From: a candidate division FCPU426 bacterium
GTDB taxonomy: Bacteria; Oederibacteriota; JAAXVQ01; JAUVAV01
Assembly: GCA_030591525.1 (NCBI GenBank)
Contig: JAUVAV010000011.1
Span: 309 to 64,308 of the forward strand
Length of the DNA: 64,000 nucleotides
Direction of reading: 5' to 3'
Both the position numbers and the translations under genes were made by a program. This document shows, in pieces, positions 10,876-27,114 of this stretch. The notes under the pieces are model-generated. The model saw only the letters and a program-made list of their open reading frames with translations, was not told the origin of the DNA and searched no databases. Position 1 is the first letter of the stretch. The number at the start of each line of letters is the position of its first letter.

Positions 10876-13065
10876 ATGCAAGAGAAAAAAGTTAAAGCAG
10901 TAAAATTATTCAGTGCAGCATTATTGTCAATGGCGGTTTTATATCAAGGAACCGTGGCGGCCCGGGTGCAGGGAATACAGGAATATAGAATGGAGCAGGT
11001 GGTGGTGACTGGGACGAAATCGAAACGGGTGCTTTCTGACGTTCCGGTGCGCACAGAAGTTATCACGGCCGAGGATCTGGAATTAAAAGGCGCGGTTAAT
11101 TTATACGAAGCCCTGGACGGCGTACCGGGTATCAGGGTGGAAGAGCAATGTTCTTACTGCAATTTTTCCATGGTGCGCATGCAGGGCTTGTCCGGGGATA
11201 ATGTCCAGATCCTGATTGACGGTCAGCCGATTTATACCGGCCTGGCGGCGGTCTATGGTTTGCAGCAGATACCGGCTTCCAGTATCGAGCGTATCGAGGT
11301 GGTCAAGGGCGCCGGCTCTGCCCTTTACGGCAGCAAGGCGGTCTCCGGGGTGATAAATGTAATCACTAAAAAGCCGGGTAAAAAGCCTTCCCTGGAGGTT
11401 GCCACCAGTTTGGGGACGCATAATACTAATAATTACTCCATGAATGCTTCGGCCCGGTTTAATGAAAAGGTGGATATCCTGATTACCGGGCAAAAAAGCA
11501 GCGGCGATATCATTGATGAAAATCAGGATATGGCATCCGACCGCGTATGGAGCAACAATATGTCCAATACGTTTAAAGTAAATATTCATGATATTTTTGG
11601 CCGGGATGTTATTCAGGTTAACGGCCGGTTTATTGAAGAGGCCAGAAAAGGCGGTGAACTGCCGGATGCCTATCTAAATCCTTTTAACGAGGGAAGCGAA
11701 CATATCAATACTATCCGGCAGGAAGCTTCGCTGGGTTATAGCCGGGATTTTGACGCCGGCCAGGCATGCGATTTTAATTTTACCTATACCCGGCATAATC
11801 GTGATGCCACCAATGACACCTTTCTCGGTGACTTCCTTGACATTAACGGGAATTATCCCACTAGCGACCTGCTTCTGCCCTATCTGGCCGGCGAGACGCT
11901 TTATTTTGCGGATACCAATTTTACCCAGCCCTTTACGGCCGGCGGAGAGCATCGCCTTCTGGGCGGGGTGTCATTTAGCCATAATTACCTTAAAGAGAGC
12001 GGCATGTATGTGATTGTGGATGATACGGATCCGAATTATGGGTCGCCCTATAAGTCCCACAGCTTTAAAGAGGCTGATGATTGGGGCCTTTACATCCAGG
12101 ATGAGTGGGCCCTAATGGAAAATTTGGAATTGGTGATCGGCGGACGCTATGACAGGCATAAGTCCAAAAGTATATTCAGCGGAGGCGAGGAACTGGGGCT
12201 TTTGCCGAGGGAACTGGTTTTTGAGGCGGATTCCTTTATGCCGCGCAGCGGCCTGATGGTCAAGCCGCTCCCGGAAATGACGGTCCGGGCGGCCATTGGC
12301 CAGGGATTCAGGGTGCCGTTTGGATTTGCCGAAGACCTGCACCTTTGCAGCGGATCACCCCGGGTTTTTAAAAGCGAGAACTTAAAGGCGGAAAAATCCA
12401 TCAGCTATAACGCAAGTATTGATTATGGGCGGGCCTGGTATAACCTCAGCCTGAATATTTTTAGAACCGATCTTACTGATAAAATAGATTTAGCAGACGC
12501 GGAAGACGGCAGCCCGGCCGCAAGCCTGGGCTATGATTATGTATGGGAGAATCTGGGCAAGGCCTATACCCAGGGGCTGGAACTGGGCGCGGAGCTGAGT
12601 CCGCTTAATAACTTGATTTTGAAAGCGGATTTTACCTGCACTGACGCTCAGTACCAGGAGGCGCGCGGAGATTGGGAGAATCATCCGGTCCATGGCGATA
12701 AATATTTCGCAGATAGCAAATATATTTCGCGGGTTCCCCAATTTTCAGCCGGTGCCGATGTTGTCGCACAGCCGGGGAGTTGGAAATTTTTCGCCGGCCT
12801 TGACCTGATTGGGCCGCAATACATTGATTACAATGCCAATGATGACGTGGAGGATCCGGCCAGCGAAATAGTAAAGACCGATTCCTATATGATTATGAAC
12901 TTGAGCGCAGCCTATACTTTCCAGGAGATAGGTTTAACCCTGTTGGCCGGGGCGAAGAATCTATGGGATGAAAGACAGACTGATAAGCGGCCGGATGACG
13001 CCGCCTTTATTTACAAACCCCTGACCGGCCGCATTTTATATGCCGGAGCTAAAATAGCGTTTTAA
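10876..13065 (+). CDS. TonB-dependent outer-membrane receptor 1
   Basis: Signal peptide, TonB box (EQVVVTG), plug (ILIDG, IERIEVVKGAGSALYG, GVINVITK), C-terminal F. CSYC in the plug. Confidence 0.95.
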   Translation: MQEKKVKAVKLFSAALLSMAVLYQGTVAARVQGIQEYRMEQVVVTGTKSKRVLSDVPVRTEVITAEDLELKGAVNLYEALDGVPGIRVEEQCSYCNFSMVRMQGLSGDNVQILIDGQPIYTGLAAVYGLQQIPASSIERIEVVKGAGSALYGSKAVSGVINVITKKPGKKPSLEVATSLGTHNTNNYSMNASARFNEKVDILITGQKSSGDIIDENQDMASDRVWSNNMSNTFKVNIHDIFGRDVIQVNGRFIEEARKGGELPDAYLNPFNEGSEHINTIRQEASLGYSRDFDAGQACDFNFTYTRHNRDATNDTFLGDFLDINGNYPTSDLLLPYLAGETLYFADTNFTQPFTAGGEHRLLGGVSFSHNYLKESGMYVIVDDTDPNYGSPYKSHSFKEADDWGLYIQDEWALMENLELVIGGRYDRHKSKSIFSGGEELGLLPRELVFEADSFMPRSGLMVKPLPEMTVRAAIGQGFRVPFGFAEDLHLCSGSPRVFKSENLKAEKSISYNASIDYGRAWYNLSLNIFRTDLTDKIDLADAEDGSPAASLGYDYVWENLGKAYTQGLELGAELSPLNNLILKADFTCTDAQYQEARGDWENHPVHGDKYFADSKYISRVPQFSAGADVVAQPGSWKFFAGLDLIGPQYIDYNANDDVEDPASEIVKTDSYMIMNLSAAYTFQEIGLTLLAGAKNLWDERQTDKRPDDAAFIYKPLTGRILYAGAKIAF

Positions 13066-13070
13066 GCGAT

Positions 13071-13136
13071 GGGGGGACGTTCTCAATTTAACAACTTAAT
13101 TGTCTCTTTAAGTTGTTAAATTGAGAACGTCCCCCC
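13071..13136. repeat. Perfect 29-bp inverted repeat with 8-nt loop, intra-operonic
   Basis: ggggggacgttctcaatttaacaacttaa / ttaagttgttaaattgagaacgtcccccc. Confidence 0.9.
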
Positions 13137-13153
13137 GCTATAAGAGGAAAGAG

Positions 13154-14026
13154 ATGATGATCCGAAAAAGAGAAAATAAAAGGGATGCCGGCATAAGAGT
13201 CTTGGCGCTGGCTTTGTCCGCCATGGCATGCTGCCTAGGTGTTTGCGCTGCCCAGGAGGGTTTGCCTGATCAGCATAAAGAACTGTACCAAGCGCACAAA
13301 ATAACGTATCGCGAATCGCATAAGGCGGTCGCGCTTACCCGGACCTTGGAAAGCCTGGCGGAAAAACTGGCGCGCCTTCAGCAGCAGGTGGAAATGGAGA
13401 AACAATCCTGGCAGGAGGAAAAGGCCAACCTGGAACAAACATTCAAACTTCTGCGTAAAGAGAAAACCCTGCTGGAAAAAGAAATCCGCACTACGAAAAA
13501 AAATAAAAATACTCAAAGGGCTGAGCGCGCGCAGTGGCTGGAGGAAGAACGGCGGTATACAAAGGTTTTGGGAAATTGCGGTCCCACGCTGAGCCGGGCG
13601 GAAGCGAATTTATTAAAATGGCAAAAGCGTTTGCCGCCGGCTTTGCTCTTGCTTCTGAAAAAGCAGTTCAACCGACTGAACCGCAGCCATGAGCGGTCCG
13701 TGTCGCAAAGGCTGCAATTGGTTCTGAATTTATACGGAAAAATCGAAGGATTTCAGCATAGGGCACATTTGGTCAGGGAGGTTTTAACCATAAAGGGAGG
13801 GCGGAAAAAAGAATTTGATGTGCTTTACCTGGGCTTGGCGCAGGGATTTGCCGTCAGCCGGGACAACCAACAAGCCGGTCTGGGACGTCCGGACATAGGA
13901 ACCTGGAACTGGGACTGGCATCCGGAATTGATAGGTAAGATACGGCTAAGTATGGACTATTACCGGCATAATAAAACCGCGGATTTTGTGCTCTTGCCCC
14001 TGCGCATTAACAAGGAATTGCCATGA
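13154..14026 (+). CDS. DUF3450-like coiled-coil protein of TtpC-type TonB systems
   Basis: Signal peptide, long coiled coil, SQRLQ, VLYLGLAQ, W-x-W, LP motifs; position before the long ExbB. Confidence 0.7.
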   Translation: MMIRKRENKRDAGIRVLALALSAMACCLGVCAAQEGLPDQHKELYQAHKITYRESHKAVALTRTLESLAEKLARLQQQVEMEKQSWQEEKANLEQTFKLLRKEKTLLEKEIRTTKKNKNTQRAERAQWLEEERRYTKVLGNCGPTLSRAEANLLKWQKRLPPALLLLLKKQFNRLNRSHERSVSQRLQLVLNLYGKIEGFQHRAHLVREVLTIKGGRKKEFDVLYLGLAQGFAVSRDNQQAGLGRPDIGTWNWDWHPELIGKIRLSMDYYRHNKTADFVLLPLRINKELP

Positions 14027-15411
14027 AGCGGCTATTAACGCTGATTTCAATGCTGGCCATTATTCAAACCATTGGGACGTCTGCCGGGGCGGGCAATAAA
14101 TTGGATCAGGCTGTTCTGGCCCTGGAAGCGGACATTAAAAAAGCGAGCTCCCAATTAACGGAGCTCCGCAAGCGGCATTCCGCGGAGCGGATCATGCTGA
14201 GCCGCAGGATCGCCGAATTGGAAAGCGGAATTATTCCCCTCAGGGAAAAGCGGCAGGAGCTGAAAGATATAATCTGGATGAAGGAGACCGGTTATCAGCA
14301 GTTGCAGGCTCGGGCAGGTTCTTTAAAAGAAGAGGTGAGTTTCTGCGCCTCCCTGCTCTCGGAGTATTACCGGGAGATGACGGTCCGCATGACCTTGGCA
14401 GAGGAAAACCATTTAAAAGAAACCAGGCCGGAGATTGACCGGGTTTTGAGGGCAGAATCTTCGGAAACCGTGCTGGAGGGCATTCAGCCCATGCTGGATA
14501 TGATCAGCCATCAAAACCAAGTTAACCTGGGCGGGACAGTCTTTAAAGGACAGGCTTTGGATAAAAACGGTTTGCTCTATTCCGGAACTTTTGTCCGGGC
14601 CGGACCAATTGATTTTTTTGTGGATGATAAAGGAAAGACAGCGGGTCTGACCGGCTTAAACCCGGGAAGTGCCATTCCGCAAATTATATTAGGATTAAAC
14701 GCGGAGAATCTGCAGGACCTGGCTCTTGGCCGCGAAGCCGAGGTATTGCTGGATTTTACCTTGGGCGAAGCTATAAAGGTGAAACAGCATAAAAAATCCT
14801 GGTTCCAGCATATCCGGGCCGGCGGGATTGTCATGATTCCCATATTGGGACTGGGCCTGCTCTGTCTGGGAGTGGCGATTCGGAAATTCATTGAACTGCG
14901 GAAATTAAAAACCCATGTAGAACCGGTTATCGCCAATGTTCTGGCTTTTATTCATCGCGGCGATATTCAGCAGGCCGGGAACGAAGCCCGGAAAGCGGGA
15001 GCGCCGATTGCGCCGGTTTTGGCCGAAGGCGTACACCATTATAACGCGCCTCAGGAGCATATTGAGGAAATAATGCATGAACAGATTTTAAGCCAAATTC
15101 CGGCCCTGGAAAAAAACCTTCCGGTTTTAGCCGTATCAGCCGCGGTCTTGCCGCTTTTAGGTCTGTTAGGCACGGTTACCGGTATGGTCCATACTTTTGA
15201 CCTGATGGCGATTTTCGGAACCGGCAAAGTAAACCTGCTTTCCGGGGGTATCAGCGAGGCCTTGATCACAACGGAATTCGGTCTGATAACCGCCATTCCC
15301 GCACTCCTGGTTCACGCTTATTTATCAAAGCGGGTTAAAACCGTGGTCCATACCATGGAACAAACCGCGATTGCTTTTGTGAATGGATTGCATATCAGGA
15401 AGAAAAAATGA
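14023..15411 (+). CDS. Long MotA/TolQ/ExbB protein (TtpC-like)
   Basis: Signal peptide and N-terminal extension, then GGIVMIPI, PLLGLLGTVTGM, GISEALITTEFGL. Confidence 0.88.
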   Translation: MKRLLTLISMLAIIQTIGTSAGAGNKLDQAVLALEADIKKASSQLTELRKRHSAERIMLSRRIAELESGIIPLREKRQELKDIIWMKETGYQQLQARAGSLKEEVSFCASLLSEYYREMTVRMTLAEENHLKETRPEIDRVLRAESSETVLEGIQPMLDMISHQNQVNLGGTVFKGQALDKNGLLYSGTFVRAGPIDFFVDDKGKTAGLTGLNPGSAIPQIILGLNAENLQDLALGREAEVLLDFTLGEAIKVKQHKKSWFQHIRAGGIVMIPILGLGLLCLGVAIRKFIELRKLKTHVEPVIANVLAFIHRGDIQQAGNEARKAGAPIAPVLAEGVHHYNAPQEHIEEIMHEQILSQIPALEKNLPVLAVSAAVLPLLGLLGTVTGMVHTFDLMAIFGTGKVNLLSGGISEALITTEFGLITAIPALLVHAYLSKRVKTVVHTMEQTAIAFVNGLHIRKKK

Positions 15412-16034
15412 ATAACCTGATAGAGAGTTTCCAGTACTGGATCAAAGGTGGCTGGCTGCTTATTCCCCTGGCCGGAGTCTGCATATTTATCTGGTACTAC
15501 TTTATAAAAATGAATGGGCGTTTAAAAAAACTTCTGTCCGCGCCCGAGGGTATAGAAGACGAACTGCAGGAGGAATTGGCCAGGAGCCATAGCTGGAGCC
15601 GGGTAAAACCTCCGGCTTTGGGCCAGGCTTGCCGAATAAACTACATGATCGCTTATGCCATTGAAAGGCTCAGACAAGGCCGGGATTTAATCCATATCTT
15701 CAGCGAGATGAGACAAAAAGAGTTTGCGCCTTTTGAGCGTGATCTGGCCGTGCTGAGCGCGCTGGTAACTTCCGCCCCTTTGCTGGGATTGCTGGGCACA
15801 GTGTTCGGCATGGTTAATACCTTTTCAGCCATTGCGGAACGGTCCAGCCAAACCACGGAATTAATGGCCTCGGGGATCAGCCAGGCCCTGATTACCACCC
15901 AATTTGGCCTGATTATCGCGATTCCCGGCATTTTCGGCATTTCCTTGCTGCGGAAAAAACTGCAACAGGTAGAGGTGCGTTTTTCAGCATTGCAAATTCA
16001 CTTTTCTTTAGGCCTGCACCGGAGGGGGCAATGA
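15408..16034 (+). CDS. exbB: ExbB proton-channel protein
   Basis: APLLGLLGTVFGM, GISQALITTQFGLIIAIP. Confidence 0.88.
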   Translation: MNNLIESFQYWIKGGWLLIPLAGVCIFIWYYFIKMNGRLKKLLSAPEGIEDELQEELARSHSWSRVKPPALGQACRINYMIAYAIERLRQGRDLIHIFSEMRQKEFAPFERDLAVLSALVTSAPLLGLLGTVFGMVNTFSAIAERSSQTTELMASGISQALITTQFGLIIAIPGIFGISLLRKKLQQVEVRFSALQIHFSLGLHRRGQ

Positions 16035-16432
16035 ACCGTCATCGATATTTACAATCTTCGGACTCGGTGGAGATCAATATATCGCCATTGATTGATATGA
16101 TGTTTTTACTGCTGATATTTTTTATCGTGACCACTGCTTTTGTGGAAGAGATTGGCATACAAATCCAGAAACCCAAGGCTGCCAGCGCGCAAAATCTGGA
16201 AAAGCAAAGCATCATGCTGGGAGTTTCGGAAAACGGCGGCGTAATTTATGGCGGTAATGAAATCGGGCTGAGCGGTGTTCGCGCTTTAGTATCCCGCCTG
16301 CTGAAAGACCGGGAGCGGCCCGTGATTATTATTGCCGACACCCAGAGCCGGAGCGGAATAGTAGTGGATGTGATAGATGAATGCAAACTGGCCGGAGCCA
16401 AACAGGTAAGTATTGCCACGGAGGCGGAATGA
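16031..16432 (+). CDS. exbD: ExbD
   Basis: INISPLIDMMFLLLIFFIVT; IIAD...VVDVIDECKLAG. Confidence 0.92.
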   Translation: MNRHRYLQSSDSVEINISPLIDMMFLLLIFFIVTTAFVEEIGIQIQKPKAASAQNLEKQSIMLGVSENGGVIYGGNEIGLSGVRALVSRLLKDRERPVIIIADTQSRSGIVVDVIDECKLAGAKQVSIATEAE

Positions 16433-17079
16433 ACCCCCCCAGGTTGTATTGTCCGGATATGGGACCGAAGTGGAGCTATAAGGTGGCAATTGCCGGTATT
16501 CTGATTACTCTGGGCATTTTTTTATCATTGCCCCTGCTCGATATGCTGGTTCGTCAGAAAAAACGGCTTAAAATTCGCCAGGTCTCGGTCACGGAGATAC
16601 GCAAGACATTGCCGCGTATTCCGCCGCCCATAAGAAAAAGGACAAAAGCCTGGAAGCCTAAGTTGGCCGAGCCCCGGCAGAGTCTCGCCATGACGCGAAT
16701 TAATGCCGCTTTGAGCCTGGAACCGGGCTTCGGGGATTTCAGCCTGAATTTTGGGCCATCCCTGATGGCAGGGGCCGGGGATCTGGTTTTTGATATTTCC
16801 GAGGTGGACCAACCACCCCGGGGAGTATTTACAATGTTGCCGATATATCCCCTGGCCGCGAAGTTAAAAAACTTGAAGGGCCGGGTAGTGCTGGCATTTG
16901 TTGTCAAGGGTGACGGCACGGTTGACCGGATAGCAGTCCAATCCGCATCGCCCGCCGGTGTGTTTGAGCAGGCAGCGATTAATGCGGTAAAAAAGTGGCG
17001 GTTTAAACCGGGGACCAGGAGGGGCAAGCCCGTGGCCACGCGGGTTATTCAGCCCCTGGAGTTTAGTTTGGAGAGATAG
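16429..17079 (+). CDS. tonB: TonB energy transducer
   Basis: N-terminal TM, Pro-rich linker, YPLAAK..GRV, FEQAAINAVKKWRFKP. ATG overlaps the exbD stop. Confidence 0.9.
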   Translation: MNPPRLYCPDMGPKWSYKVAIAGILITLGIFLSLPLLDMLVRQKKRLKIRQVSVTEIRKTLPRIPPPIRKRTKAWKPKLAEPRQSLAMTRINAALSLEPGFGDFSLNFGPSLMAGAGDLVFDISEVDQPPRGVFTMLPIYPLAAKLKNLKGRVVLAFVVKGDGTVDRIAVQSASPAGVFEQAAINAVKKWRFKPGTRRGKPVATRVIQPLEFSLER

Positions 17080-17089: not shown

Positions 17090-18412
17090 ATGCGAATAAG
17101 AAATATACCCATCCGCTGCCTTTTATTTGTATGTGTGTTTGGGATCCCAATGTTTTTACACGCTGAACGCGGCTATTCCGGCGATAAAATGCCGGAGTCA
17201 AGCGAGCCTAAGGTTACCACGCAGGAAGCGGAAATATTAAATCGGATTTCAGCAGCAATTAAAAAAGATCAAGAAATTCCTGAAATAATTGAATTTCTTA
17301 AATCCCGGATTAAGCATGATTCAAGTCCGGCTCTGGATTTTGCTTTGGGAAACCTTTGTTTTCAGTCCGGCGAATTGAAAAAAGCTGAATCAGCTTACCG
17401 GGCGGCGTTGAAAAAAATGCCGGCTTTTTCCCGGGCGCGGGCGAATCTGGCGAGAGTTATGCTCCAACAGGGTGAAAGCGATACGGCCTTAAAGGAATTG
17501 CAATCCTTGCTTCTGCGCGGAGCGGTTAAACCTTCGACCATGACATTGCTGGGATACACATATTTAATAAAGGGCGAACCAATTCCGGCTGAATCCGCCT
17601 ACCGGCAGGCGCTGCTGTATAAACCTGATGATGTTAATGCCTATTTAGGATTGGCCAAATCCTTGCTGGAACAAGAACGTTATAAAGAGTCGGGAAAAAT
17701 CCTGGAAGACGTGATTGAGGAATTTCCCTTGCGGGGAGAATTATGGTCTCTTTTGGCAAATACCCGCCTGGCTTTGGAACAGCCCATGCGCGCGATCGCG
17801 GCCCTGGAGAGCGCCCGGCGGCTGGAAGCAGCTTCGCCTGAAGCGCTGGCGACCCTGGGCGACCTGTTGATAAACCAGGGCCAACCCCATGCGGCCCGGG
17901 AAGTCTATGACGAAGCTTTTGCTAAAGAAAAGCCCTCGATTGACAGATTATTGCGCGCCATTGACGCATTCCTGATGGTCAGAGATACCATGGGCGTGAG
18001 CGCCATGCTGAAGCGGGCCAGGGTTCTGGAAAAAAAGGTGTTATTAACCGCTGCTCAGCGTAAAAAAATACATTGGCAATCGGCCCGGGAGGCTCAAATC
18101 AATGGCAAAATAAGAGAGGCTTTAAAAGCCTATCAACAGCTTCTGGAAGAAGATCCGCTGAATACCCGGGTCTTGCTGGCAATGGGTGATATCTACCAGG
18201 AGGAAAAGGAGTACGAGCGGGCCCTTTTAGCCTATGAACGGGCCGGCCGGCTGGGGGAGATGAAGATTACAGCGCTTATCCGGCAGGCCCGGGTCGAGGT
18301 GAAACGGGGGAATTATCAACGGGCCATTGAGCATCTGGAAGAGGCCCAGTATCTGCAGCCCCAGCCGCACGTGGCTAAATATCTTGAGCAGGTCAGGCGC
18401 TTGGTGAGGTAA
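17090..18412 (+). CDS. Exported TPR protein (TtpD-like)
   Basis: Signal peptide; repeated TPR patterns (LGN..F..G...AE.AY..AL...P). Confidence 0.85.
   Translation: MRIRNIPIRCLLFVCVFGIPMFLHAERGYSGDKMPESSEPKVTTQEAEILNRISAAIKKDQEIPEIIEFLKSRIKHDSSPALDFALGNLCFQSGELKKAESAYRAALKKMPAFSRARANLARVMLQQGESDTALKELQSLLLRGAVKPSTMTLLGYTYLIKGEPIPAESAYRQALLYKPDDVNAYLGLAKSLLEQERYKESGKILEDVIEEFPLRGELWSLLANTRLALEQPMRAIAALESARRLEAASPEALATLGDLLINQGQPHAAREVYDEAFAKEKPSIDRLLRAIDAFLMVRDTMGVSAMLKRARVLEKKVLLTAAQRKKIHWQSAREAQINGKIREALKAYQQLLEEDPLNTRVLLAMGDIYQEEKEYERALLAYERAGRLGEMKITALIRQARVEVKRGNYQRAIEHLEEAQYLQPQPHVAKYLEQVRRLVR
18283..18397 (+). repeat. 115-bp direct repeat, copy 1 (3' end of the TPR gene)
   Basis: 4 mismatches relative to 27497-27611. 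Confidence 0.92.
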
Positions 18413-19106: not shown

Positions 19107-19699
19107 TGTTGATATTGACCAATACGCTCTATTTTGTGTCCACCGCGCTGCTCATACCGGTGATTGTTTTGCTGCTGCTGGCTTTTATATATGCCTTGAT
19201 AATGATAGGGGGATTTTACGGGGTGTATATTCAGCGCCTGAGATTCAAGCAGGCGAAAAAGCGGCTTCTGGAAAGAATCAGGCAAAGCGATATTCGCAGG
19301 ATGGATTTCAGCGGTATTGCCGAACATAACCAGCCGTTTTTAAATGGGTTAAGAAAATTAGCCCAGACTGCGTGGCATCCGGTCCATGGCGGGAAAATAA
19401 TCACTGATCAGGAACTCGAAGGAGCCAGGGAACTGGAGGGCGCGAAAATTCTGATGCGTATCGGGCCCATGCTGGGACTTATGGGGACTTTGATCCCCAT
19501 GGGGCCGGCCCTGGCCGGGCTGGCCGCCGGGGATATTGCGGCCATGGCTACGAATATGCAGATTGCTTTTTCCACGACTGTGGTCGGGATATTTGTAGGC
19601 GCAATTGGTTTTGGCGCGCAAATGGTAAAACAGCGCTGGATGATTGAAGACATAAGAGATCTTCGGTACGTTTTTGATTTGGCTTTGGGTGGGCAATAA
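19106..19699 (+). CDS. MotA/TolQ/ExbB-family protein (HmuU-like)
   Basis: RIGPMLGLMGTLIPMGPALAGLAAGD, NMQIAFSTTVVG: the subtype found beside CobN-like chelatases. Confidence 0.85.
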   Translation: MLILTNTLYFVSTALLIPVIVLLLLAFIYALIMIGGFYGVYIQRLRFKQAKKRLLERIRQSDIRRMDFSGIAEHNQPFLNGLRKLAQTAWHPVHGGKIITDQELEGARELEGAKILMRIGPMLGLMGTLIPMGPALAGLAAGDIAAMATNMQIAFSTTVVGIFVGAIGFGAQMVKQRWMIEDIRDLRYVFDLALGGQ

Positions 19700-19702
19700 A
19701 TC

Positions 19703-20032
19703 ATGGCGCGCAGAGCGGGTATTTTCGAGCAATTGCAGGAAACGGATAATGATCCCTTGAGCGGCATGGCTAATCTCTTTGATTTGGCCATGGTCTTCGC
19801 GGTCGCCCTGATGGTGGCCATGGTGGTATATTTCAAGCTGCCGGAATTGCTTTCATCCGATGATTTTACCATGATCAAGAATGCCGGAAAGGAAAATATG
19901 GAGATCATTGTTAAAAAAGGCCGGGAAATAACCAAATACAAAGGCACGCAAAACCAGGGTCAGGGCAAAGGAAAACGCGTAGGCGCGGCCTATGAGCTGG
20001 AAGACGGCCGGATTATTTACGTGCCGGAGTAG
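19703..20032 (+). CDS. DUF2149 protein (HmuV-like)
   Basis: DPLSGMANLFDLAMVFAVALM, IKNAG, G.G.RVG.AY.L.DG.IIYVPE. Confidence 0.88.
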   Translation: MARRAGIFEQLQETDNDPLSGMANLFDLAMVFAVALMVAMVVYFKLPELLSSDDFTMIKNAGKENMEIIVKKGREITKYKGTQNQGQGKGKRVGAAYELEDGRIIYVPE

Positions 20033-20065: not shown

Positions 20066-23000
20066 ATGAAGACAATCATGGTAAATATTATGGGATTGCT
20101 TAAAAAACCATATATCATTGCCGGTCTTTTAGCCATCGGGTTGGCCGGCGCGGTCTATGTGAAATTCATCAGCCCGACCAACCTAGCTTTCATTAATTTC
20201 ACGGATTCACAATACGCGCAGATACTTCAGGTGAAGGGCAATCCCTTTATACGGGTGAAACGCATCTCGTTCAAACCGGAAAAAACACCTGGTTTGAAAA
20301 AGTATACGGCTATCTATATTTTCGGCATGGGCCTGAACCTGAATGAAAAGCAGATGAAAAGCATCCGGGCGGCTATGAATAAAGGAAGCAAAGTATATGT
20401 CTATGCAGCTACCAGCAGCGGTAGTGATTTGACCAATCTGGCGGGAGATAATCTGAAATATGTTGAAGCCTGTTTCAGTAATGGCGGGCGCAGGAATATG
20501 CACGCCCTGTTGAATTACAGCCGCCGGATATTTGATGGAAAAACATTGTTCGGCCGGCCGTTGGCAGAGCCGCAAATCATACCCCATGATGTCTTTTTCC
20601 ATCTGGGCGAGGAAGAGTTTTTTGCTGATTACAAAAAGTATCAGGAATTTTACGAGACCAAGGGGTATTACAAACCTGAAGGCGCGAAGATTTGTATCCT
20701 GACGACTAATCTCGGCCCCAGAAACCGGAATAACCGGGCCGCGGTGGATGCCCTGATAAGGGATTTAGAGGCGCGCGGCATGAATGTTTATCCGGCAGCC
20801 GGGTTCATGCAACGCCTGGATTTCCTGAAAGCCGTGAATCCGGATTTGGCCGTGTTGATGCCGCATGGACGGCTGGCCATGGGCCGGGCGGCTGAAGCCG
20901 TCGCTTATCTTGGAGAGAAAAATATTCCCTTGCTTTGTCCGATTCATATCTTTGGCCCCTATGATGAGTGGCTAAAGGACCAACAGGGCATGGCCGGGGG
21001 CATGCTGAGCCAGAGCATTGTTATGCCGGAGTTGGACGGCGGGATTGATCCTTATGTCATTGGCGCTCAGTTTAAAAACAAAGATGGATTGTATGTTTTC
21101 CAACCCATACCGGAAAGGATTAAACGGTTTGGCCGGCGGGTGGAAAATTGGATCAGATTGCAGCGCCTGCCGAATTCTGGAAAAAAAGTGGCGATTGTCT
21201 ATTACAAAGGTCCGGGTTTAAACGCCATGTCAGCCGGCGGTCTGGAAGTAGGACCATCGATGCTGAATGTGCTCCGTCATTTGAAACAACGGGGGTTTAA
21301 TACCGGCGTTTTGCCGGAAAATAACCAGGTCTTGATGGAGCGGATTCAAAAAGAAGGCCCGGTTTTGGGCGCTTACGCCAAGGGGTCTTTTCAAAAATAT
21401 TTAGATAATGGAAATCCAAAACTAATTCCCGTGCCAACCTATTCCGCCTGGTGTCAACAGCAGCTGAAACCGGAAATGGTCAAAGATATAGAAGCAAATT
21501 ACGGGCCGGCTCCGGGAGCATATATGCAAGTTACCAAAGGCGAGGAGAGATATATTGCAGTAGCCCGGATCCGGTTCGGCAATGTGGTTATCCTGCCCCA
21601 GCCTTTGCCCGGATATGGCGATAATGAATCCAAACTGATTCATGGGATCAAAAAAGCGCCGCCCCATTCATATGTGGCTGCTTATCTCTGGGCAAAAAAC
21701 GGGTTTAAAGCGGACGCGATTGTTCATTTCGGCACGCACGGCAGCCTGGAATTTACGCCCTGGAAACAGGCGGCCCTGTCGCAATATGATTGGCCGGACG
21801 CGTTGATCGGCGATTTGCCGCATCCCTATATTTATGTGATCAACAATATCGGCGAGGCCATGATAGCCAAGCGCAGAAGCTATGCGGTTATTGCTTCGCA
21901 CCTGACCCCGCCGTTTACCGAGGCGGACCTGTACGGAAAATTATCAGAGCTTCACAATGCCCTGCACAGCTATTTCAGCACGGAGAGCAAGGCATTAAAG
22001 CAGGAATACCGGGAAACCATCAAGACCTTGGTTTATAAAATGGAACTGCATAAAGACCTGGAATTAGAGGAAAAAGAAAAAGGCGCTTTGCCGGAAGCGG
22101 CCATTCATAAAATACATAATCATATTCATGCGCTGGAACAGGAAAAAATCACCCGCGGGCTTTATACCCTTGGCAGGAGTTACCGCCAAACGGATGTTTA
22201 TGAAACCGTAAGACTAATGGCCATTGATGCGATCGCGTACAGCCGGGCCGGGCTGGACTTATTACAAGGAAAGATAAAAGCAGAGGATATGGAAAACCAA
22301 CACAAGTTTGACAAAATGTACCGCCAAAAGGCTTATGCCGTTATTGACAATATCCTGCTGCACAATTATTCTCCTGCCGGATATCTGGACAAGCAGGACC
22401 TGGAGCAGCTGGCTGCCTGGGAAAAACTGCATGCCAGACCCAGCGATGACGAAATGATGGCCAGCATGATGGCCATGGCAATGGACAGCCAGGGTAAGAA
22501 GAAAAAAACGCCGGAAAAAGCGAAAAAAACCGATCTTGGCCGGTTGAAAGTTCTGGTACTGGAAATAGCGCCTGATCCAAAAAAACAAGAATTTATTTTA
22601 TCCCTGAAAAACGGGAAAAACTTTACGCGTGTATCCGCTCTTTTAGATCCGGAAAGCATGAAAAAAGCGGTTAAGGTCGTAAAGTGCGTTCCTGCCATGA
22701 GGGAAAAACTTGAACTTTTTAAGGATCCAAATATGCTGGAACTGGTCGGTCTTATGCAGAATTCGAAGAGCCGCGAGACGGTGTTTAATCTGCTGGAGGA
22801 TAAGAACATGCGCGCGCAGATCCGGGATGAACAAAAAAAGCTGAAGGAGCAGGCGGTCTTAAAAGCCCTGGAACCGGATTATACCCGGGATATATTTCTG
22901 GCGATAAAGCCGGAAAAATACCGGCCAACGATTGCCGGCTGGCACAAAAACCGCTTACTGGTTTTTAAGAACCATATCGGCTTTTACCTTGAAAATAAAG

Positions 23001-24820
23001 ACCTGGCCGGCGAAATCGCCAGGACCGGAAATAAAGACGCCCGGGCATTGGCGGCAGTCTTACGAAGCGGGAAAGCGCTGGGAGCGGTTAAGGAGTCTGC
23101 CCGTCTGGCAGATAAGAAAATTGCAGAATGGGAAGCCCGGGAGGCGGATTATGTTGCGGCTGTGCGGACATACCGCGATACGCTTTTTTCAATCAAAGAT
23201 TATCATGCTGCTTTGGAAAAATCGACGCAAGCAGAGATGGCGGCCATCACGCGGGCCTTGTCCGGCGGATATTTATCCCCATCCTCAGGCGGAGATCCGA
23301 TCGGCAATCCCCGGTCAGTTCCGACCGGACGGAATCTTTTTGCCATTGACGCGGAAAAAACGCCGACCAAAGAAGCCTGGAAGGTTGGAGTAAAACTGGC
23401 GGATGCCTTAATCGCCGCCAGGCTCAGCCGGACTGGCAAGTATCCGCAAAAAGCGGCATTTACTTTATGGGGAGGCGAATTTATCCGCGCGAAAGGGATT
23501 AACCTGGCCCAGATATTTTACCTGCTGGGCGTGGAACCTGTGAGGAATTCCCGGGGATCTGTCCATGATGTCAGGCTGATACCCATGGAAAAATTGAAGC
23601 GGCCAAGGATAGATGTAGTTGTGCAGACTTCGGGTCAGTTCCGGGATATAGCGGCCTCGCGGGTTTATTTGATAAATAAAGCCGTGGAACTGGCCGGCCG
23701 GGCTGATGATGGGGACCAATATGAAAACCATGTAAAAGCCGGAACCATCAAAGCCGAGGCAATTATGAAAGCCAAAGGTCTTTCGCCTGAGCAGGCCAGA
23801 AAATTCGCCGCAGCCCGGGTGTTCGGCGGAGTCAATGGAAATTACGGAACAGCCATCATGGGCAAGGTGGAATCAGGCGATAAATGGGAAGACGAAAAAG
23901 AAATCACCGATCAATATTTAAAAAACATGGGAGCGGTTTATACCAAAGAAAATTGGGGGTTTTATCAGGCCGGAATTTTCGAAGGCGCTTTGCAAAACAC
24001 GGATACAGTGGTGCATCCTCGTTCTTCCAACACTTATGGTCCATTATCCCTGGATCATTACTATGAATTTATGGGAGGTCTCAACGCGGTAGTGCGCCAG
24101 GTTACGGGCAACGACCCCGAGGCATTCTTTAATGACCTGCGCAACCGCTATAACCCACGGGTTCAGGGCGTAAAAGAAGCCATCTGGGTGGAAGCCAGAA
24201 CCACGATATTTAATCCCAAGTATATCAAGGATCTCCAGGCCGGCGGGGCCTCGTCGGCCGAGGTGTTCGCGGAAACGGTCCGCAATACTTATGGATGGAA
24301 TGTGATGAAACCAAACGCGATTGACAAGGAAATATGGGAGGGGATTGAGTCAGTCTATATTCAGGATAAATATAAACTGGGCATGGAAAAGTACTTTCGG
24401 GATAAGAATCCTTACGCTTTGCAGGAGATAACCGCAGTCATGCTGGAGACTATTCGCAAGGGCTACTGGCAGCCCGATGCGGCGGTCATTAAGCGTATCG
24501 CTGAATTACATGCCAGGCTGGTGATAGATCATAAAGCCGGATGCAGCGGGTTTGTATGCGATAACGCGAAATTGCAAGCCATGATTCAAAATGCGCTGAA
24601 GCCGGAAATGAAAGCGGATTATAAACGGCAGATTGATTCAGCCAGGGTGGGAGAAACAGGAGAGAAGAAAAAGGGAATGGAATTGAAAAAAGAAAAGATG
24701 AGCCTGGAGAAGGTCAAGGAGCTGGTTAAGGAAAACATAACTACGGTTGTGGCAGTGTTTATAATTCTATTGCTGTTTTCCGCGGCCGTGATTGTCGGCA
24801 TGGCCAGACATAGAAAATAG
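20066..24820 (+). CDS. CobN/magnesium-chelatase-H family protein, membrane-anchored (HmuS/BtuS-like)
   Basis: PELDG, HFGTHGSLEF, AKRRS, PTGRNL, RPRIDVVVQTSGQFRD, EARTTIFNPKYI, CSGFVCDN. TM segments at both termini. Confidence 0.92.
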   Translation: MKTIMVNIMGLLKKPYIIAGLLAIGLAGAVYVKFISPTNLAFINFTDSQYAQILQVKGNPFIRVKRISFKPEKTPGLKKYTAIYIFGMGLNLNEKQMKSIRAAMNKGSKVYVYAATSSGSDLTNLAGDNLKYVEACFSNGGRRNMHALLNYSRRIFDGKTLFGRPLAEPQIIPHDVFFHLGEEEFFADYKKYQEFYETKGYYKPEGAKICILTTNLGPRNRNNRAAVDALIRDLEARGMNVYPAAGFMQRLDFLKAVNPDLAVLMPHGRLAMGRAAEAVAYLGEKNIPLLCPIHIFGPYDEWLKDQQGMAGGMLSQSIVMPELDGGIDPYVIGAQFKNKDGLYVFQPIPERIKRFGRRVENWIRLQRLPNSGKKVAIVYYKGPGLNAMSAGGLEVGPSMLNVLRHLKQRGFNTGVLPENNQVLMERIQKEGPVLGAYAKGSFQKYLDNGNPKLIPVPTYSAWCQQQLKPEMVKDIEANYGPAPGAYMQVTKGEERYIAVARIRFGNVVILPQPLPGYGDNESKLIHGIKKAPPHSYVAAYLWAKNGFKADAIVHFGTHGSLEFTPWKQAALSQYDWPDALIGDLPHPYIYVINNIGEAMIAKRRSYAVIASHLTPPFTEADLYGKLSELHNALHSYFSTESKALKQEYRETIKTLVYKMELHKDLELEEKEKGALPEAAIHKIHNHIHALEQEKITRGLYTLGRSYRQTDVYETVRLMAIDAIAYSRAGLDLLQGKIKAEDMENQHKFDKMYRQKAYAVIDNILLHNYSPAGYLDKQDLEQLAAWEKLHARPSDDEMMASMMAMAMDSQGKKKKTPEKAKKTDLGRLKVLVLEIAPDPKKQEFILSLKNGKNFTRVSALLDPESMKKAVKVVKCVPAMREKLELFKDPNMLELVGLMQNSKSRETVFNLLEDKNMRAQIRDEQKKLKEQAVLKALEPDYTRDIFLAIKPEKYRPTIAGWHKNRLLVFKNHIGFYLENKDLAGEIARTGNKDARALAAVLRSGKALGAVKESARLADKKIAEWEAREADYVAAVRTYRDTLFSIKDYHAALEKSTQAEMAAITRALSGGYLSPSSGGDPIGNPRSVPTGRNLFAIDAEKTPTKEAWKVGVKLADALIAARLSRTGKYPQKAAFTLWGGEFIRAKGINLAQIFYLLGVEPVRNSRGSVHDVRLIPMEKLKRPRIDVVVQTSGQFRDIAASRVYLINKAVELAGRADDGDQYENHVKAGTIKAEAIMKAKGLSPEQARKFAAARVFGGVNGNYGTAIMGKVESGDKWEDEKEITDQYLKNMGAVYTKENWGFYQAGIFEGALQNTDTVVHPRSSNTYGPLSLDHYYEFMGGLNAVVRQVTGNDPEAFFNDLRNRYNPRVQGVKEAIWVEARTTIFNPKYIKDLQAGGASSAEVFAETVRNTYGWNVMKPNAIDKEIWEGIESVYIQDKYKLGMEKYFRDKNPYALQEITAVMLETIRKGYWQPDAAVIKRIAELHARLVIDHKAGCSGFVCDNAKLQAMIQNALKPEMKADYKRQIDSARVGETGEKKKGMELKKEKMSLEKVKELVKENITTVVAVFIILLLFSAAVIVGMARHRK

Positions 24821-24832: not shown

Positions 24833-24982
24833 ATGGAAACCAAAAAGGAAATCAGCCGGGATATGCTGGATGAAATTGTTCAATCAATCCAGTGGATAAA
24901 ATACGGGGAGGTGAGGATTATCGTTCATGATTCGAAGATTGTACAAATAGAAAAAATCGAAAAAAAACGCTTTCAAAACTAA
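24833..24982 (+). CDS. DUF2292 (YezD/OscA-like) micro-protein, 49 aa (absent from the ORF track)
   Basis: METKKEISRDMLDEIVQSIQWIKYGEVRIIVHDSKIVQIEKIEKKRFQN; pattern I.YG.V.I.VHD..IVQIE..EK.R; GAGG upstream. Confidence 0.85.
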   Translation: METKKEISRDMLDEIVQSIQWIKYGEVRIIVHDSKIVQIEKIEKKRFQN

Positions 24983-24995: not shown

Positions 24996-25064
24996 CCGAC
25001 CACGTCTGTGGAGATTAACAAGCGGCCCATCCGGAAATGCCCACTGGAAAACCAGAGAATTCCG
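24996..25064 (+). promoter_or_regulatory. Twin covarying hairpin motif in the leader of receptor 2
   Basis: CCGA-CCAC-gtct-GTGG-AGA (24996-25014) and CCCA-CTGG-aaaa-CCAG-AGA (25040-25058). Confidence 0.5.
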
Positions 25065-25098
25065 AAAAGAATATATCTAAAAAACGAGGAGGAGTGAA

Positions 25099-27114
25099 AT
25101 GCGAAAGTACATTACAGTATTAGCCATGCTGGGTGTGATTGCATGGGGAATGCCGGCAGTGGCGCAGCAGGAGATGGAGACAACGCCGGTGGCGGAACAA
25201 ACAGCGCCGGTGGCGGAACAAACAGCGCCGGTGGCGGAACAAACAGCGCCGATGGCGGAACAAGCAGCGCCGGCGGCGGAACAAGCAGCGCCGGCGGCGG
25301 ATTCCGCCGCTTCGGCAGAGAAAGAAATACCGAGTTTTCATTTAGATAAGATGGTGATCTCAGCCACTAAAACTGAGCACAAACTAGGCGATGTGCCAGT
25401 GGCAACCGAGATCATAACGCAGGAAGATATTCAGGCCAGAGGCGCAAAAACGGTTCAGGATGCGCTGCGGGGTCTGGCAGGGATAAAGATCAACAAATCG
25501 TGCGGCAGTTGGGGAGATAAAGGCAAAATAGAAATCCACGGCATGGACGCAAGTCAGACGCTTATTCTCGTGGACGGACAGAGAGCCGTTGGCGGGCATG
25601 CCAACGCTGTTGACCTTAACCAAATACCCGTGGAAATGATAGAAAGAATAGAGATTGTCAAAGGGCCCGGTTCCGCGCTTTATGGCAGCGATGCCATGGC
25701 CGGGGTGGTAAATATCATTACCAAATCAGCTCCGGATAAACCACGAATTTCAGTAGGAACATCCCTGGGCAGCCGGCAAACCCAAATCTATGAAGCCGGC
25801 GGCGGGATAAAGGCCGGAGATTTCGGCATCGGTGATTTCGGTGTGGACGTGAATTATACGCAACGACAATCAGACGGTATTAACGCAGAAACAGACAGGT
25901 ACATCGAGGACATGGTACAGGGGACTGTGCAATATTCATTTATGCCCCAAGCGAAATTGGCTGTCAAACCGTTTTACTCAAAAAACAAGATGGATTATGA
26001 AGGCCGCAATCAGGAGCGCCTGGGTCTGAATGCACTGTTTGATTGGTCTCCGGATAAATATTCCAAATTGAATTTCCGGGGCGGCTGGTTTAATTATCAG
26101 CATTATACTGAAGATAAAAGTACCGATTACACCGGCAATGATTATGATGCTGAAATCAATTACAACCATACTCTGTTTGAACACTACACGCTTACCGGCG
26201 GATACTCGTATTACAGCAAAAAACTAGACGATCCCGGCAAAGCTTATTCAGCGGATCAGATCCTGCATAGCGGACTGTTGCAGGCGGAATTGAATTTTGC
26301 TCCAGTGACAGCTGTTTTGGGAGCCAGGCTTGACAATCATGATCTTTGGGGAGCAGAAATTAATCCCAAAGGCAGCTTAATGTACAAGGTCATAGATGGT
26401 CAGGAAGCTTTGAGATTGAGAGCGTCGGTGGGAACCGCGTTTCGCGCTCCCAGTCTGGTCAAATTGTACGCTGATGGCTGGCGGATGGGACCTTGGGTAG
26501 TCAGGGCGAATCCTGATCTTAAGCCTGAGAAATCCATCGGTTATCAGGCAGGCGCGGAATACAATATGTCCACTTTGCTGCTGGCCAAAGTGGTGTACTT
26601 TTGCAATGAAATCAAGGATTTGATTAATTACCAAACGGATGTTGAAGTAATTCCGCAGCCATTCGGGCCTCCGATAATGAGAATGTATATGGACTGGGAC
26701 AATGTCAGTGAAGCTATGACGAGAGGTATCGAATACAGCCTGGCCGGTCACCCGATGGATAAGCTGTACCTCAAGTTAGGATACACTTTTATGTGGACCG
26801 AGGATAAAGAAACCGGAAAAGAATTGACCTACAAGCCTCAACATAAGCTGGATTTTAGCGCCAGTTACCGCATTCCCTTTATTGATGTGCTGCTGGTGGC
26901 TGAAGCGGAATATGTCGGCAAACGTTTTGCGGACGAGGCCAATGAAGACCCGCTGGGTGCGTACACTCTGTTGAATTTAGCCTTGTCCCGTAGTTTGCTT
27001 GACAATGCTGATGTGTTTGTCCGGGCGGATAATCTTACCGGCGAGAAAGATATCGCGGACGAATATGATATTGACGGCACCGTAGTGCTCGCTGGTTTGA
27101 AAGTGAAGTTCTAA
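25099..27114 (+). CDS. TonB-dependent receptor 2 (BtuB/CirA-like)
   Basis: Strong SD, signal peptide, DKMVISAT, ILVDG, IERIEIVKGPGSALYG, GTAFRAP, NPDLKPEKS, C-terminal F. Confidence 0.95.
   Translation: MRKYITVLAMLGVIAWGMPAVAQQEMETTPVAEQTAPVAEQTAPVAEQTAPMAEQAAPAAEQAAPAADSAASAEKEIPSFHLDKMVISATKTEHKLGDVPVATEIITQEDIQARGAKTVQDALRGLAGIKINKSCGSWGDKGKIEIHGMDASQTLILVDGQRAVGGHANAVDLNQIPVEMIERIEIVKGPGSALYGSDAMAGVVNIITKSAPDKPRISVGTSLGSRQTQIYEAGGGIKAGDFGIGDFGVDVNYTQRQSDGINAETDRYIEDMVQGTVQYSFMPQAKLAVKPFYSKNKMDYEGRNQERLGLNALFDWSPDKYSKLNFRGGWFNYQHYTEDKSTDYTGNDYDAEINYNHTLFEHYTLTGGYSYYSKKLDDPGKAYSADQILHSGLLQAELNFAPVTAVLGARLDNHDLWGAEINPKGSLMYKVIDGQEALRLRASVGTAFRAPSLVKLYADGWRMGPWVVRANPDLKPEKSIGYQAGAEYNMSTLLLAKVVYFCNEIKDLINYQTDVEVIPQPFGPPIMRMYMDWDNVSEAMTRGIEYSLAGHPMDKLYLKLGYTFMWTEDKETGKELTYKPQHKLDFSASYRIPFIDVLLVAEAEYVGKRFADEANEDPLGAYTLLNLALSRSLLDNADVFVRADNLTGEKDIADEYDIDGTVVLAGLKVKF
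25184..25301 (+). repeat. 21-bp coding tandem repeat (~5.6 copies, APVAEQT)
   Basis: cgccggtggcggaacaaacag repeated, drifting to cgccggcggcggaacaagcag. Confidence 0.92.

Follow-up and report, generated by a model that had tools for sequence, protein, structure and literature searches.

A probable iron-starvation operon joining a TonB2/TonB3-type gene set to an HmuS-like dechelatase module in a candidate division FCPU426 bacterium

Why would a single operon encode, behind a complete TonB system, a second small set of ExbB/ExbD-like proteins together with a CobN-like protein that carries a membrane anchor at each end? This question is raised by positions 10876-27114 of a 64,000-nucleotide stretch of contig JAUVAV010000011.1 (the whole stretch is called the window below) from a candidate division FCPU426 bacterium, whose genome assembly comprises 2.70 Mb in 91 contigs and is 96% complete. 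With genes called from the open reading frame (ORF) listing and from Pfam and NCBIfam scans, this part of the window holds 13 genes, all on the plus strand and separated by gaps of -51 to 116 bp (10 bp between the TPR gene and hmuT), and the co-directional, tightly spaced run described in a first-pass annotation of the same DNA is thus borne out. It is probable that these genes form a metal-, most likely iron-starvation operon, by means of which heme is imported, Fe(II) is removed from it in the periplasm, and the iron is passed to the ferrous-iron transporter FeoB. Relatives of the host are referred to as G029 (the sister species), G027 (another genus of the same family), and G025 and G026 (further relatives). 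The genes and sites on which the argument draws are the following.

4876..5340, plus strand: DtxR/MntR-family metal-dependent repressor, probably the regulator of the locus (Fe_dep_repr_C 81 bits, Fe_dep_repress 42 bits; overlaps feoB)
5322..7499, plus strand: FeoB ferrous-iron transporter, the probable inner-membrane route for Fe(II) (FeoB_N 214 bits, Gate, FeoB_C)
10747..10776, plus strand: best sigma-70-like promoter of the operon, TTGACA-18-TAAAAT (11 of 12 positions matched)
10776..10789, no strand: palindromic operator-like site TAAGGCATGCCTAA, abutting the -10 hexamer
10876..13065, plus strand: TonB-dependent receptor 1 (Plug 92 bits, barrel 170 bits)
13121..14026, plus strand: TtpB-like DUF3450 protein (PF11932 81 bits, cut-off 32.6)
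14023..15411, plus strand: TtpC-like long ExbB-family protein, 462 amino acids (MotA_ExbB at residues 327-446, 106 bits)
15408..16034, plus strand: ExbB (MotA_ExbB 85 bits)
16031..16432, plus strand: ExbD (PF02472 99 bits)
16381..17079, plus strand: TonB (TonB_C 72 bits; one transmembrane helix at 35-53)
17090..18412, plus strand: TtpD-like TPR protein (multiple TPR families; N-terminal hydrophobic segment)
18423..19106, plus strand: HmuT-like polytopic membrane protein, 227 amino acids (matched by neither Pfam nor NCBIfam)
19106..19699, plus strand: HmuU-like MotA/ExbB-family putative proton-channel subunit, 197 amino acids (PF01618 33.2 bits, cut-off 22.9)
19703..20032, plus strand: HmuV-like DUF2149 protein (PF09919 116 bits)
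20066..24820, plus strand: HmuS-like dechelatase-family (CobN-like) protein, 1584 amino acids (CobN-Mg_chel PF02514 1011 bits)
24833..24982, plus strand: small DUF2292 protein, 49 amino acids, a lineage-specific addition (PF10055 55 bits)
25099..27114, plus strand: TonB-dependent receptor 2 (Plug and barrel)
27163..27402, plus strand: conserved four-Cys ORF of 79 amino acids (orf79) at the operon end (matched by neither Pfam nor NCBIfam)

The HmuS-like enzyme and its predicted topology

The membrane protein, MotA-like, DUF2149 and CobN-like genes had been matched in the first-pass annotation to hmuTUVS, and both the enzyme scores and the adjacency of the trio support this match. In a phmmer comparison with the PDB, the CobN-like protein scored 1176 bits against HmuS (9d26), compared with 388 bits against ChlH and 365 and 336 bits against CobN, which puts it much nearer to HmuS than to either of the others. 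Among 11 genome loci (those combining hmuT/U/V, enzyme and receptor came from KSB1, Rhodothermaceae, Ignavibacteria, Victivallaceae and Bacteroidota), the hmuT/U/V trio adjoins an HmuS-like gene at 10, the eleventh being a 4.4-kb fragment. HmuS was shown in 2025 to be the anaerobic heme dechelatase, which converts heme to protoporphyrin IX and Fe(II), and the recombinant protein is reported to stall after 1-2 turnovers (PMC12583661). HmuS requires a reductant (NADH in vitro). The family to which the window enzyme belongs is large, with 838 proteins at E<=1e-10 among 7999 scored candidates; its named relatives come from Omnitrophota, Planctomycetota, Verrucomicrobia, Acidobacteria, Muirbacterium, Hyphomicrobiales and Bacteroidota, and nearly all of them are annotated as 'cobaltochelatase subunit CobN'.

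The residues that define HmuS, taken from PMC12583661 and given here in the numbering of the Bacteroides thetaiotaomicron protein, include Met79 and His254-Gly-Arg, described as the ligands of site-1 heme, and His538, described as essential for turnover. The site-1 ligands are kept in the window protein as Met88 and His267-Gly-Arg, as are Gln299 (Gln316) and the catalytic or cation-site histidines His538 and His1209 (His558 and His1331). In an alignment of 129 sequences, consisting of the window protein, 8 locus sequences and the 120 best database matches, His254 is conserved in 128, His538 in all 129 and His1209 in 127, and Met79 is kept in 66 and replaced by Arg in 40 and by His in 18. Judged from this alignment, the Met79/His254 pair is a real discriminator, and it is present in the window protein.

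A Met-rich stretch of the window protein aligns with the published HmuS insertion site. The insert region is 260 amino acids long and Lys-rich (11 Met, 36 Lys) in the window protein and only 52 amino acids long in the sister species; a Lys-rich segment of about 208 amino acids (window 22440-23080, approximately residues 793-1004), which follows the Met-rich stretch, is absent from the 87%-identical sister-species protein. Across the 129 relatives, the length of this region is bimodal, at either about 40-55 or about 260 amino acids, and the Lys-rich insert looks like a dispensable module that has been repeatedly gained or lost.

By hydropathy analysis, the CobN-like protein has a hydrophobic anchor near each end (residues 17-35 and 1561-1579); both anchors are found in 117 of the 129 family members, and a strongly hydrophobic internal segment is found in none. 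Across the family, Lys and Arg residues number 3.4 before the N-terminal helix vs. 1.9 after it, and the net charge is +3.3 in the C-terminal tail vs. +0.1 before the C-terminal helix. Given these end anchors and this positive-inside charge pattern, the enzyme is predicted to have both termini in the cytoplasm and its body in the periplasm, in agreement with what the first-pass annotation had claimed for its anchors and location; the same periplasmic topology has been predicted for BtuS1/2 of B. fragilis (PMC6460266).

The host genome contains one CobN-family gene, and the partners that go with a cytoplasmic chelatase were not found. None of the ChlI/D, CobS/T or HmuY families was detected among the 53 window ORFs scanned, as had been claimed, and a search for cobST elsewhere in the genome gave no match to CobT, CobS not having been searched by a model of its own. 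The only strong Mg_chelatase ATPase in the genome (PF01078) is of the YifB/ComM type (627 bits). ALAD and ferrochelatase likewise had no match in the 96%-complete genome, the B. thetaiotaomicron control being negative for both models as well, and the host apparently cannot make tetrapyrroles, a reading that is suggestive only, because it builds on absence from an incomplete genome.

This apparent deficiency bears on the direction of the reaction. Since the rest of the superfamily are chelatases, the enzyme might run mainly forward, inserting iron into scavenged protoporphyrin IX in the periplasm, or in both directions depending on supply. B. fragilis, which also lacks HemH, is reported to make heme from protoporphyrin IX and iron, and its BtuS1 and BtuS2 mutants to be altered in both forward and reverse chelatase activities (PMC6460266), so that the absence of ferrochelatase and ALAD from our genome would fit such a role. 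However, HmuS has been demonstrated to remove iron from heme (PMC12583661), metal insertion by class I chelatases depends on AAA+ partners, which were not found here, and co-regulation with iron uptake, described below, fits scarcity, a condition in which iron insertion would be least useful. We therefore consider a mainly forward or bidirectional enzyme very unlikely, and treat the protein as a putative dechelatase in what follows.

The TonB set, the receptors and the HmuTUV trio

The six genes that follow receptor 1 (DUF3450, long ExbB, ExbB, ExbD, TonB and TPR) have the order ttpB-ttpC-exbB-exbD-tonB-ttpD. This is the order described for the Vibrio TonB2 and TonB3 systems, in which TtpB2 belongs to DUF3450 and TtpD is of the TPR type, and in which the tonB3 operon is headed by a receptor gene (PMC6957404). 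The match to Vibrio Ttp/TonB2 systems proposed in the first-pass annotation thus stands as one of gene order and protein families, and the receptor gene at the head of our operon is placed as in TonB3. The genome has 6 TonB_C genes in all, including the tonB of this operon.

A search of the host phylum, allowing up to 400 genomes, returned just 99, and the host is indeed outside Bacteroidota, as had been suggested. Among these 99 genomes, DUF2149 occurs in three (the window genome, G029 and G027) and DUF3450 above its cut-off in five, all of the host's family. The whole 13-gene order recurs with protein identities of 75-96% in G029 and 28-79% in G027, and a layout shared by the sister species and another genus is not a matter of chance. 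DUF2292 follows hmuS in both relatives (90% identity in G029, 66% in G027) and was not detected in 80 metagenome loci, and counterparts of orf79 lie at the same place (51% in G029, 54% in G027). By contrast, hmu genes are missing from a G026 locus in which a receptor 1 ortholog (55%) and the six TonB genes give way to toxin-antitoxin and defence genes, and three more loci (in G026, G025 and G027) have the six-gene set without either receptor 1 or hmu. Conversely, the Ttp set is present at only one of the 11 hmu genome loci, that of G029, and absent at the 10 others, and no Ttp, ExbB/D, TonB or TPR gene was found at any of the 80 metagenome loci, 38 of which include at least 8 kb of upstream sequence. 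The gene order at these metagenome loci is S-TUV in 56, TUV-S in 5 and unreadable in 19.

What joins the two parts is thus a fusion at the level of the operon that has become fixed in one lineage, and it does not imply mechanistic coupling, since G026 has receptor 1 and the TonB set in the absence of hmu. By this fusion, a block of hmuTUVS, DUF2292, receptor 2 and orf79 was placed behind an existing receptor 1-TonB operon. Of the joined two-motor hybrid that the first-pass annotation had described, the gene fusion is conserved in G029 and G027, whereas coupling of the two motors does not follow. The locus is thus an unusual packaging of known parts and not a new kind of machine.

The two receptors follow the two parts of the operon. 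Receptor 1 orthologs head the TonB set in G029 (94%), G027 (67%) and the hmu-less locus of G026, from which receptor 2 is absent, and receptor 2 is 75% identical in G029 and 74% in G027; receptor 1 travels with the TonB set and receptor 2 with the hmu module. The best NCBIfam model of receptor 1 is a heme/hemoglobin receptor subfamily, at 165 bits and under the cut-off of 317. Among hmu-adjacent receptors, receptor 2 is best matched by that of KSB1 (31% over 561 amino acids), and we regard it as a candidate heme importer. Solved structures do not help here, CirA and BtuB being nearest to both receptors.

Both receptors have further sequence peculiarities. The mature N-terminus of receptor 2 (residues 23-68, window 25165-25300) consists of tandem AEQ(T/A)AP(V/A)-type repeats ahead of the plug, and its orthologs are 15-29 amino acids shorter. 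The plug of receptor 1 contains a CSYC motif (residues ~90-97, window 11140-11170), with one further Cys in an FRVP...HLCSGSP region, and its weak NCBIfam matches include Cys/Sec-motif receptor families.

Concerning the trio, HmuU keeps the GLxGTLIxM and TTV motifs of transmembrane helices 2 and 3 in 12 of 12 orthologs. HmuV (DUF2149) combines one transmembrane helix, whose Asp27 is invariant across all 11 orthologs, with a short outer domain rich in beta structure. A DUF2149 profile search of the PDB found nothing, and an AlphaFold2 model built from 11 sequences (predicted local distance difference test, pLDDT, 60.7) was too poor for fold comparison. As its profile shows no similarity to that of ExbD (see below), HmuV is ExbD-like in build alone, that is, in its single helix with an invariant Asp.

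HmuT belongs to a family of 317 representatives at E<=0.001. No Pfam family is common to the 102 members scanned, which gave matches to seven families, one member each, at a best E-value of 0.0024. Its AlphaFold2 model is confident (pLDDT 92.9) and all-helical, and comparison with the PDB by Foldseek returned no match at E<=0.001; the best VIA-align Z-score was 7.3, to halves of MFS transporters, which is below a meaningful level for helical bundles. A suggested link of HmuT to archaeal DUF2162 (an Atlas lead with a score of 0.87) found no support, as Pfam recovered it in 0 of 4 sequences at E<=10 and in 0 of 102 at E<=0.01. An alignment of nine close relatives contains no invariant His or Cys, and across the 102 members nothing is invariant, Pro106 alone being nearly so; given the lack of an invariant His or Cys, HmuT is unlikely to be a heme-binding electron conduit.

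What, then, might the trio drive? In the legend to its Figure 1B, PMC12583661 has HmuU/V power HmuR, whereas a review assigns the powering of HmuR to TonB/ExbB/ExbD and has HmuTUV move heme or iron across the inner membrane, describing HmuV as having no known homology (PMC12094164). Applied to our operon, the former view would make HmuU/HmuV the energiser of receptor 2 and leave the Ttp set to serve receptor 1 alone, so that two independent uptake systems would stand side by side with no motor for the enzyme. Such an arrangement would agree with the MotA/ExbB-family membership of HmuU, with the one-helix-with-Asp build that HmuV shares with ExbD, and with the G026 locus, where receptor 1 and the Ttp set stand alone, the hmu genes and receptor 2 coming and going as a block. 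However, the hmu block contains no TonB-like protein, which an ExbB/ExbD pair needs to reach a receptor, and the complete TonB system in the same operon would make a second energiser redundant. Moreover, DUF2149 lies beside the CobN-like gene at all 61 readable loci of the 80 metagenome loci, and the DUF2149 model also matches the archaeon Methanosarcina acetivorans; archaea are not known to have TonB-dependent receptors. We thus consider a receptor-energising role for HmuU/HmuV distinctly unlikely.

We favour instead a role of HmuTUV as a motor serving the enzyme or its product. This is suggested by the full TonB system in the same operon, by the lack of a TonB in the hmu block, by the constant neighbourhood of DUF2149 and enzyme wherever the flank is readable, and by the stalling of recombinant HmuS noted above (PMC12583661). 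A bolder version of this idea is that HmuT/U/V constitute a third proton-driven envelope motor beside TonB and Tol, whose output would be a periplasmic enzyme instead of a protein of the outer membrane, and which would take the place of the AAA+ ATPases of cytoplasmic class I chelatases; we put this forward tentatively, as a possibility more likely to fail than to hold. It is with similar doubt that we suggest that the proton gradient might cycle HmuS through porphyrin distortion and product release. If the idea were true, the operon would show in nature that the HmuTUV and TonB motors are not interchangeable.

Regulation, iron context and the choice of substrate

The promoter TTGACA-18-TAAAAT is the best of 30 promoter-like sites between positions 10400 and 28600. 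The palindrome that abuts it has counterparts in the relatives: G029 has TAAGGTACGCCTAA where the window has TAAGGCATGCCTAA, and a second full site in G029 is a half-site in the window, while GTTAGA-N4-TCTAAC occurs in both G027 and G026 at the equivalent place and upstream of dtxR-feoB. In the 3.6 Mb of G027, GTTAGR-N4-YCTAAC has three exact sites, all of them in this locus (two ahead of receptor 1, one ahead of dtxR), and a site with one mismatch lies in the 58-bp gap before DUF3793-flavodoxin-hmuT; both exact sites in G026 precede receptor 1 and the dtxR(-FeoA)-feoB operon. In the host genome, exact TAAGG-N4-CCTAA has two copies, the other being inside an ORF.

The regulon outlined by these sites looks like one for iron. 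In G027, dtxR-feoB lies directly upstream, with the repressor ortholog adjoining receptor 1, and a DUF3793-flavodoxin pair is inserted between the TPR gene and hmuT (L027 15946-17076); in G029, the operator precedes DUF3793-flavodoxin just downstream of orf79 (L049 3744-5048). No homolog of this pair was found in the window genome by tblastn at E<=1e-5. The feoB orthologs upstream of receptor 1 are 58% identical in G027 and 89% in G029, and on one metagenome contig (L050) a DtxR-like gene lies directly upstream of hmuTUVS. From the conserved palindrome together with the DtxR-like repressor/feoB pair, we infer iron control, and a DtxR-family regulon comprising feoB, the receptors, the TonB set, hmu and flavodoxin is likely; a flavodoxin within it would be expected of an iron-sparing response.

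The first-pass annotation had the released metal feed into FeoB/ZupT. FeoB is supported by the upstream position of dtxR-feoB in G027 under the same operator, and heme-iron use is reported to need FeoAB in B. fragilis (PMC6460266). ZupT as a part of the system was rejected, no ZIP or methyltransferase match being present in the G029 or G027 locus.

Some features of the leader and of the operator-like sites stand apart. A terminator-like hairpin (TGCCTAATAAAGGCG followed by a T run) occupies window 10783-10806 in the 5' leader, overlapping the right half of the operator; the same hairpin and T run occur in G029, with no Rfam match, and the hairpin may act as an attenuator or result from the palindrome itself. 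The two operators ahead of receptor 1 in G027 and G026 flank a small ORF (G027:C20 24937-25237 and L042 3185-3621), which the window lacks; it encodes a hydrophobic helix with a Cys-rich tail, and we take it to resemble FeoB-associated Cys-rich membrane peptides. Operator-like sites on G027:C15 lie in an MMPL/LolA/TetR cluster.

Taken together, we hypothesize the following sequence of events. When metal is scarce, the DtxR-family repressor would leave the palindromic operator at the promoter and the 13-14 genes would be transcribed. The six-protein TonB2/TonB3-type complex (TtpB, TtpC, ExbB, ExbD, TonB and TtpD) would energise both outer-membrane receptors, of which receptor 2 would carry heme into the periplasm. 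There, the HmuS-like enzyme, held in the inner membrane by its N- and C-terminal helices, would bind heme via Met88 and His267 and remove Fe(II) at the His558/His1331 site, leaving protoporphyrin IX, and Fe(II) would enter via FeoB, which is encoded with the repressor. HmuU and HmuV might form a small ExbB/ExbD-like proton channel joined by polytopic HmuT, as a unit belonging to the enzyme and not to the receptors, and HmuTUV may draw on the proton gradient to drive a step at which HmuS by itself is poor, be it product release or transport, or conformational cycling.

A number of observations weigh against this hypothesis. The window enzyme has Gly, Ser and Tyr in place of Ser1014, Gln1198 and Trp1202 of HmuS, keeping only Ser1067 and Ser1199 among five cleft residues that are described as strictly conserved in the authors' HmuS set (PMC12583661) and that are all kept in 5 Bacteroidota locus sequences. 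In an unrooted FastTree phylogeny of the 129 sequences, with no outgroup, the 5 Bacteroidota locus enzymes form their own clade (support 1.0), and the window enzyme falls outside it, in a clade of 20 that includes the KSB1 sequence (support 0.96) and in which Met79 is kept in 16 and His254 in all 20; we thus place it in the HmuS-like branch, as a sister form of the Bacteroidota HmuS group rather than strictly within it. The G027 hmuS reads in two frames, with its N-terminal 305 codons in the other frame (L027, G027:C20, about 13370-13390), which points to a frameshifted pseudogene or else to faulty assembly of this metagenome-assembled genome. The reductant that HmuS needs is problematic as well, as the periplasm is not an obvious supplier of it. 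HmuY (PF14064) has no match in the 96%-complete genome, the B. thetaiotaomicron control being positive; neither receptor reaches a curated heme-receptor cut-off, the best model of receptor 2 being a B12-receptor one (224 bits, cut-off 600); and a tree of 16 receptors neither placed receptor 2 with the hmu-adjacent receptors nor singled out an HmuR equivalent. In a comparison of profiles, DUF2149 showed no similarity to ExbD (hhalign probability 2%). As for regulation, 3 of the 12 positions specified in the consensus of G027 and G026 differ in the window operator, and a loose operator pattern gave 19 matches in the host genome vs. 70 in a base-permuted control, i.e., no enrichment, two other strict-looking matches being in coding or ORF-dense sequence. 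The best NCBIfam model of the repressor is MntR (75 bits, below cut-off), and its metal-site residues, aligned to B. subtilis MntR, are mixed (Asp19, Cys111, Glu114 and His115); we read the Asp as MntR-like and the Cys as DtxR-like, so that Mn sensing is possible.

Several of these points would fit an operon for another metal or chelate, such as cobalt from corrinoids, nickel or zinc porphyrinoids or some other metallophore, with a regulator that senses Mn or another metal. The three altered cleft residues, the MntR models of the repressor, the B12-receptor model of receptor 2 and the CirA and BtuB structures nearest to both receptors could all be read in this way, as could the ZIP transporter and DUF1007/NicO pair downstream in the window; moreover, as 58 of 129 sequences have Arg or His where HmuS has Met79, the family is not uniformly heme-specific, and the P. 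aeruginosa genes PA1922-PA1925 are reported to be Zur-regulated and 45- to 147-fold induced by zinc depletion (PMC4542158). However, the window protein keeps both heme ligands, an Rfam scan of the window found no family at the gathering threshold and hence no cobalamin riboswitch, the conserved partners are feoB and, in relatives, a flavodoxin under the same operator, and neither the ZIP nor the methyltransferase gene is conserved beside the operon in G029 or G027. Another metal or chelate is therefore rather unlikely in our view. The substrate, which the first-pass annotation had given as unknown, is thus less open than it seemed: given the retained heme ligands, the absence of a B12 riboswitch and the iron-type regulon, it is most likely heme, and the trigger is most likely iron.

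The stretch between feoB and the operon encodes a hydrolase, a glycosyltransferase and, between them, a PIN toxin pair, and downstream of the operon follow a methyltransferase, a ZIP transporter and the DUF1007/NicO pair; what remains is of a housekeeping kind (SecDF, a class II tRNA synthetase, a MacB/FtsX-type ABC transporter, and McsB/ClpC). The last of these belong to a McsA-like (UVR motif), McsB-like (ATP:guanido phosphotransferase) and ClpC-like trio at window 54996-59020, here in a bacterium with outer-membrane receptors; this arrangement is best known from Firmicutes. Two very long ORFs, at window 58-4371 and 40631-45166, encode 1437 and 1511 amino acids, of which the former embeds enolase N and C domains and a class II aldolase fragment and the latter has no Pfam family. 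GC-rich palindromic repeat units of the GTAGGGGC...GCCCCTAC type crowd the intergenic regions 4372-4815, ahead of dtxR, and 10560-10700, ahead of receptor 1, each with several copies. A search of sequencing runs returned 16, all of DNA type and none of RNA, 3 of which hold at least half of the sequence words; the three best-matching runs all come from one cold-seep metagenome study, which may include the source sample.

Known counterparts and what the locus means

The closest counterpart of the hmu part is the hmuYRSTUV system of Bacteroidota (B. thetaiotaomicron, P. gingivalis, and B. fragilis with BtuS1/BtuS2), with which our operon shares the neighbourhood of a receptor, a two-anchor HmuS-type enzyme, HmuT, HmuU and HmuV, as well as the retained heme ligands and catalytic histidines, the lack of AAA+ partners, the link to FeoB and an apparently tetrapyrrole-deficient host. 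It differs in gene order (T-U-V-S-(DUF2292)-R vs. S-T-U-V), in lacking HmuY and in its phylum. The enzyme itself belongs to a separate clade, with a 260-amino acid insert vs. about 100 amino acids and three cleft changes, and our operon has DUF2292, the 79-amino acid Cys ORF, the TonB2/3-type set and a second receptor in addition, in a DtxR-type rather than a Fur-type setting.

The TonB part resembles Vibrio TonB2/TonB3 in its six genes, their order and protein types, its iron-uptake context and, as in TonB3, a receptor at the head of the operon. Here, however, the set is found in an unrelated candidate phylum, in one family (5 of 99 genomes), with a dechelatase module behind it and a DtxR-type palindrome in place of the Fur box described for Vibrio tonB2 (PMC6957404). 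A further system, P. aeruginosa PA1922-PA1925, is described as likewise combining a receptor, a CobN-like protein (PA1923) and small ExbB/ExbD-like partners (PA1924 being ExbD-like), with no AAA+ subunits and under a metal-starvation regulator, but the metal in that case is zinc (Zur) (PMC4542158). With CobNST and ChlHID, the window enzyme shares a homologous catalytic subunit (PF02514) and the equivalents of His538/His1209. Class I chelatases are cytoplasmic, AAA+-driven and metal-inserting, whereas the enzyme here is membrane-anchored and predicted to be periplasmic, no AAA+ partners were found, and its closest characterised relative, HmuS, removes metal.

The HmuS system has been described as primarily (PMC12583661) or characteristically (PMC12094164) one of Bacteroidota. 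Our locus and the 838 relatives of its enzyme place the enzyme, here with its T/U/V partners, well outside that phylum, and in this case in an anoxic cold-seep setting. The fused operon offers a compact test bed that brings together a regulator, an Fe(II) importer, an energiser, two receptors, an enzyme and an accessory motor, and it provides a natural genetic argument that HmuU/V have a task other than energising the receptor. The flavodoxin found under the same operator in two relatives bears on how heme iron is reduced, and a published idea holds that flavodoxin reduces HmuS-bound heme. Rather than a new class of system, the practical gain from this locus would be a better annotation of the many 'CobN' genes of anaerobes and a sharper hypothesis for HmuTUV.

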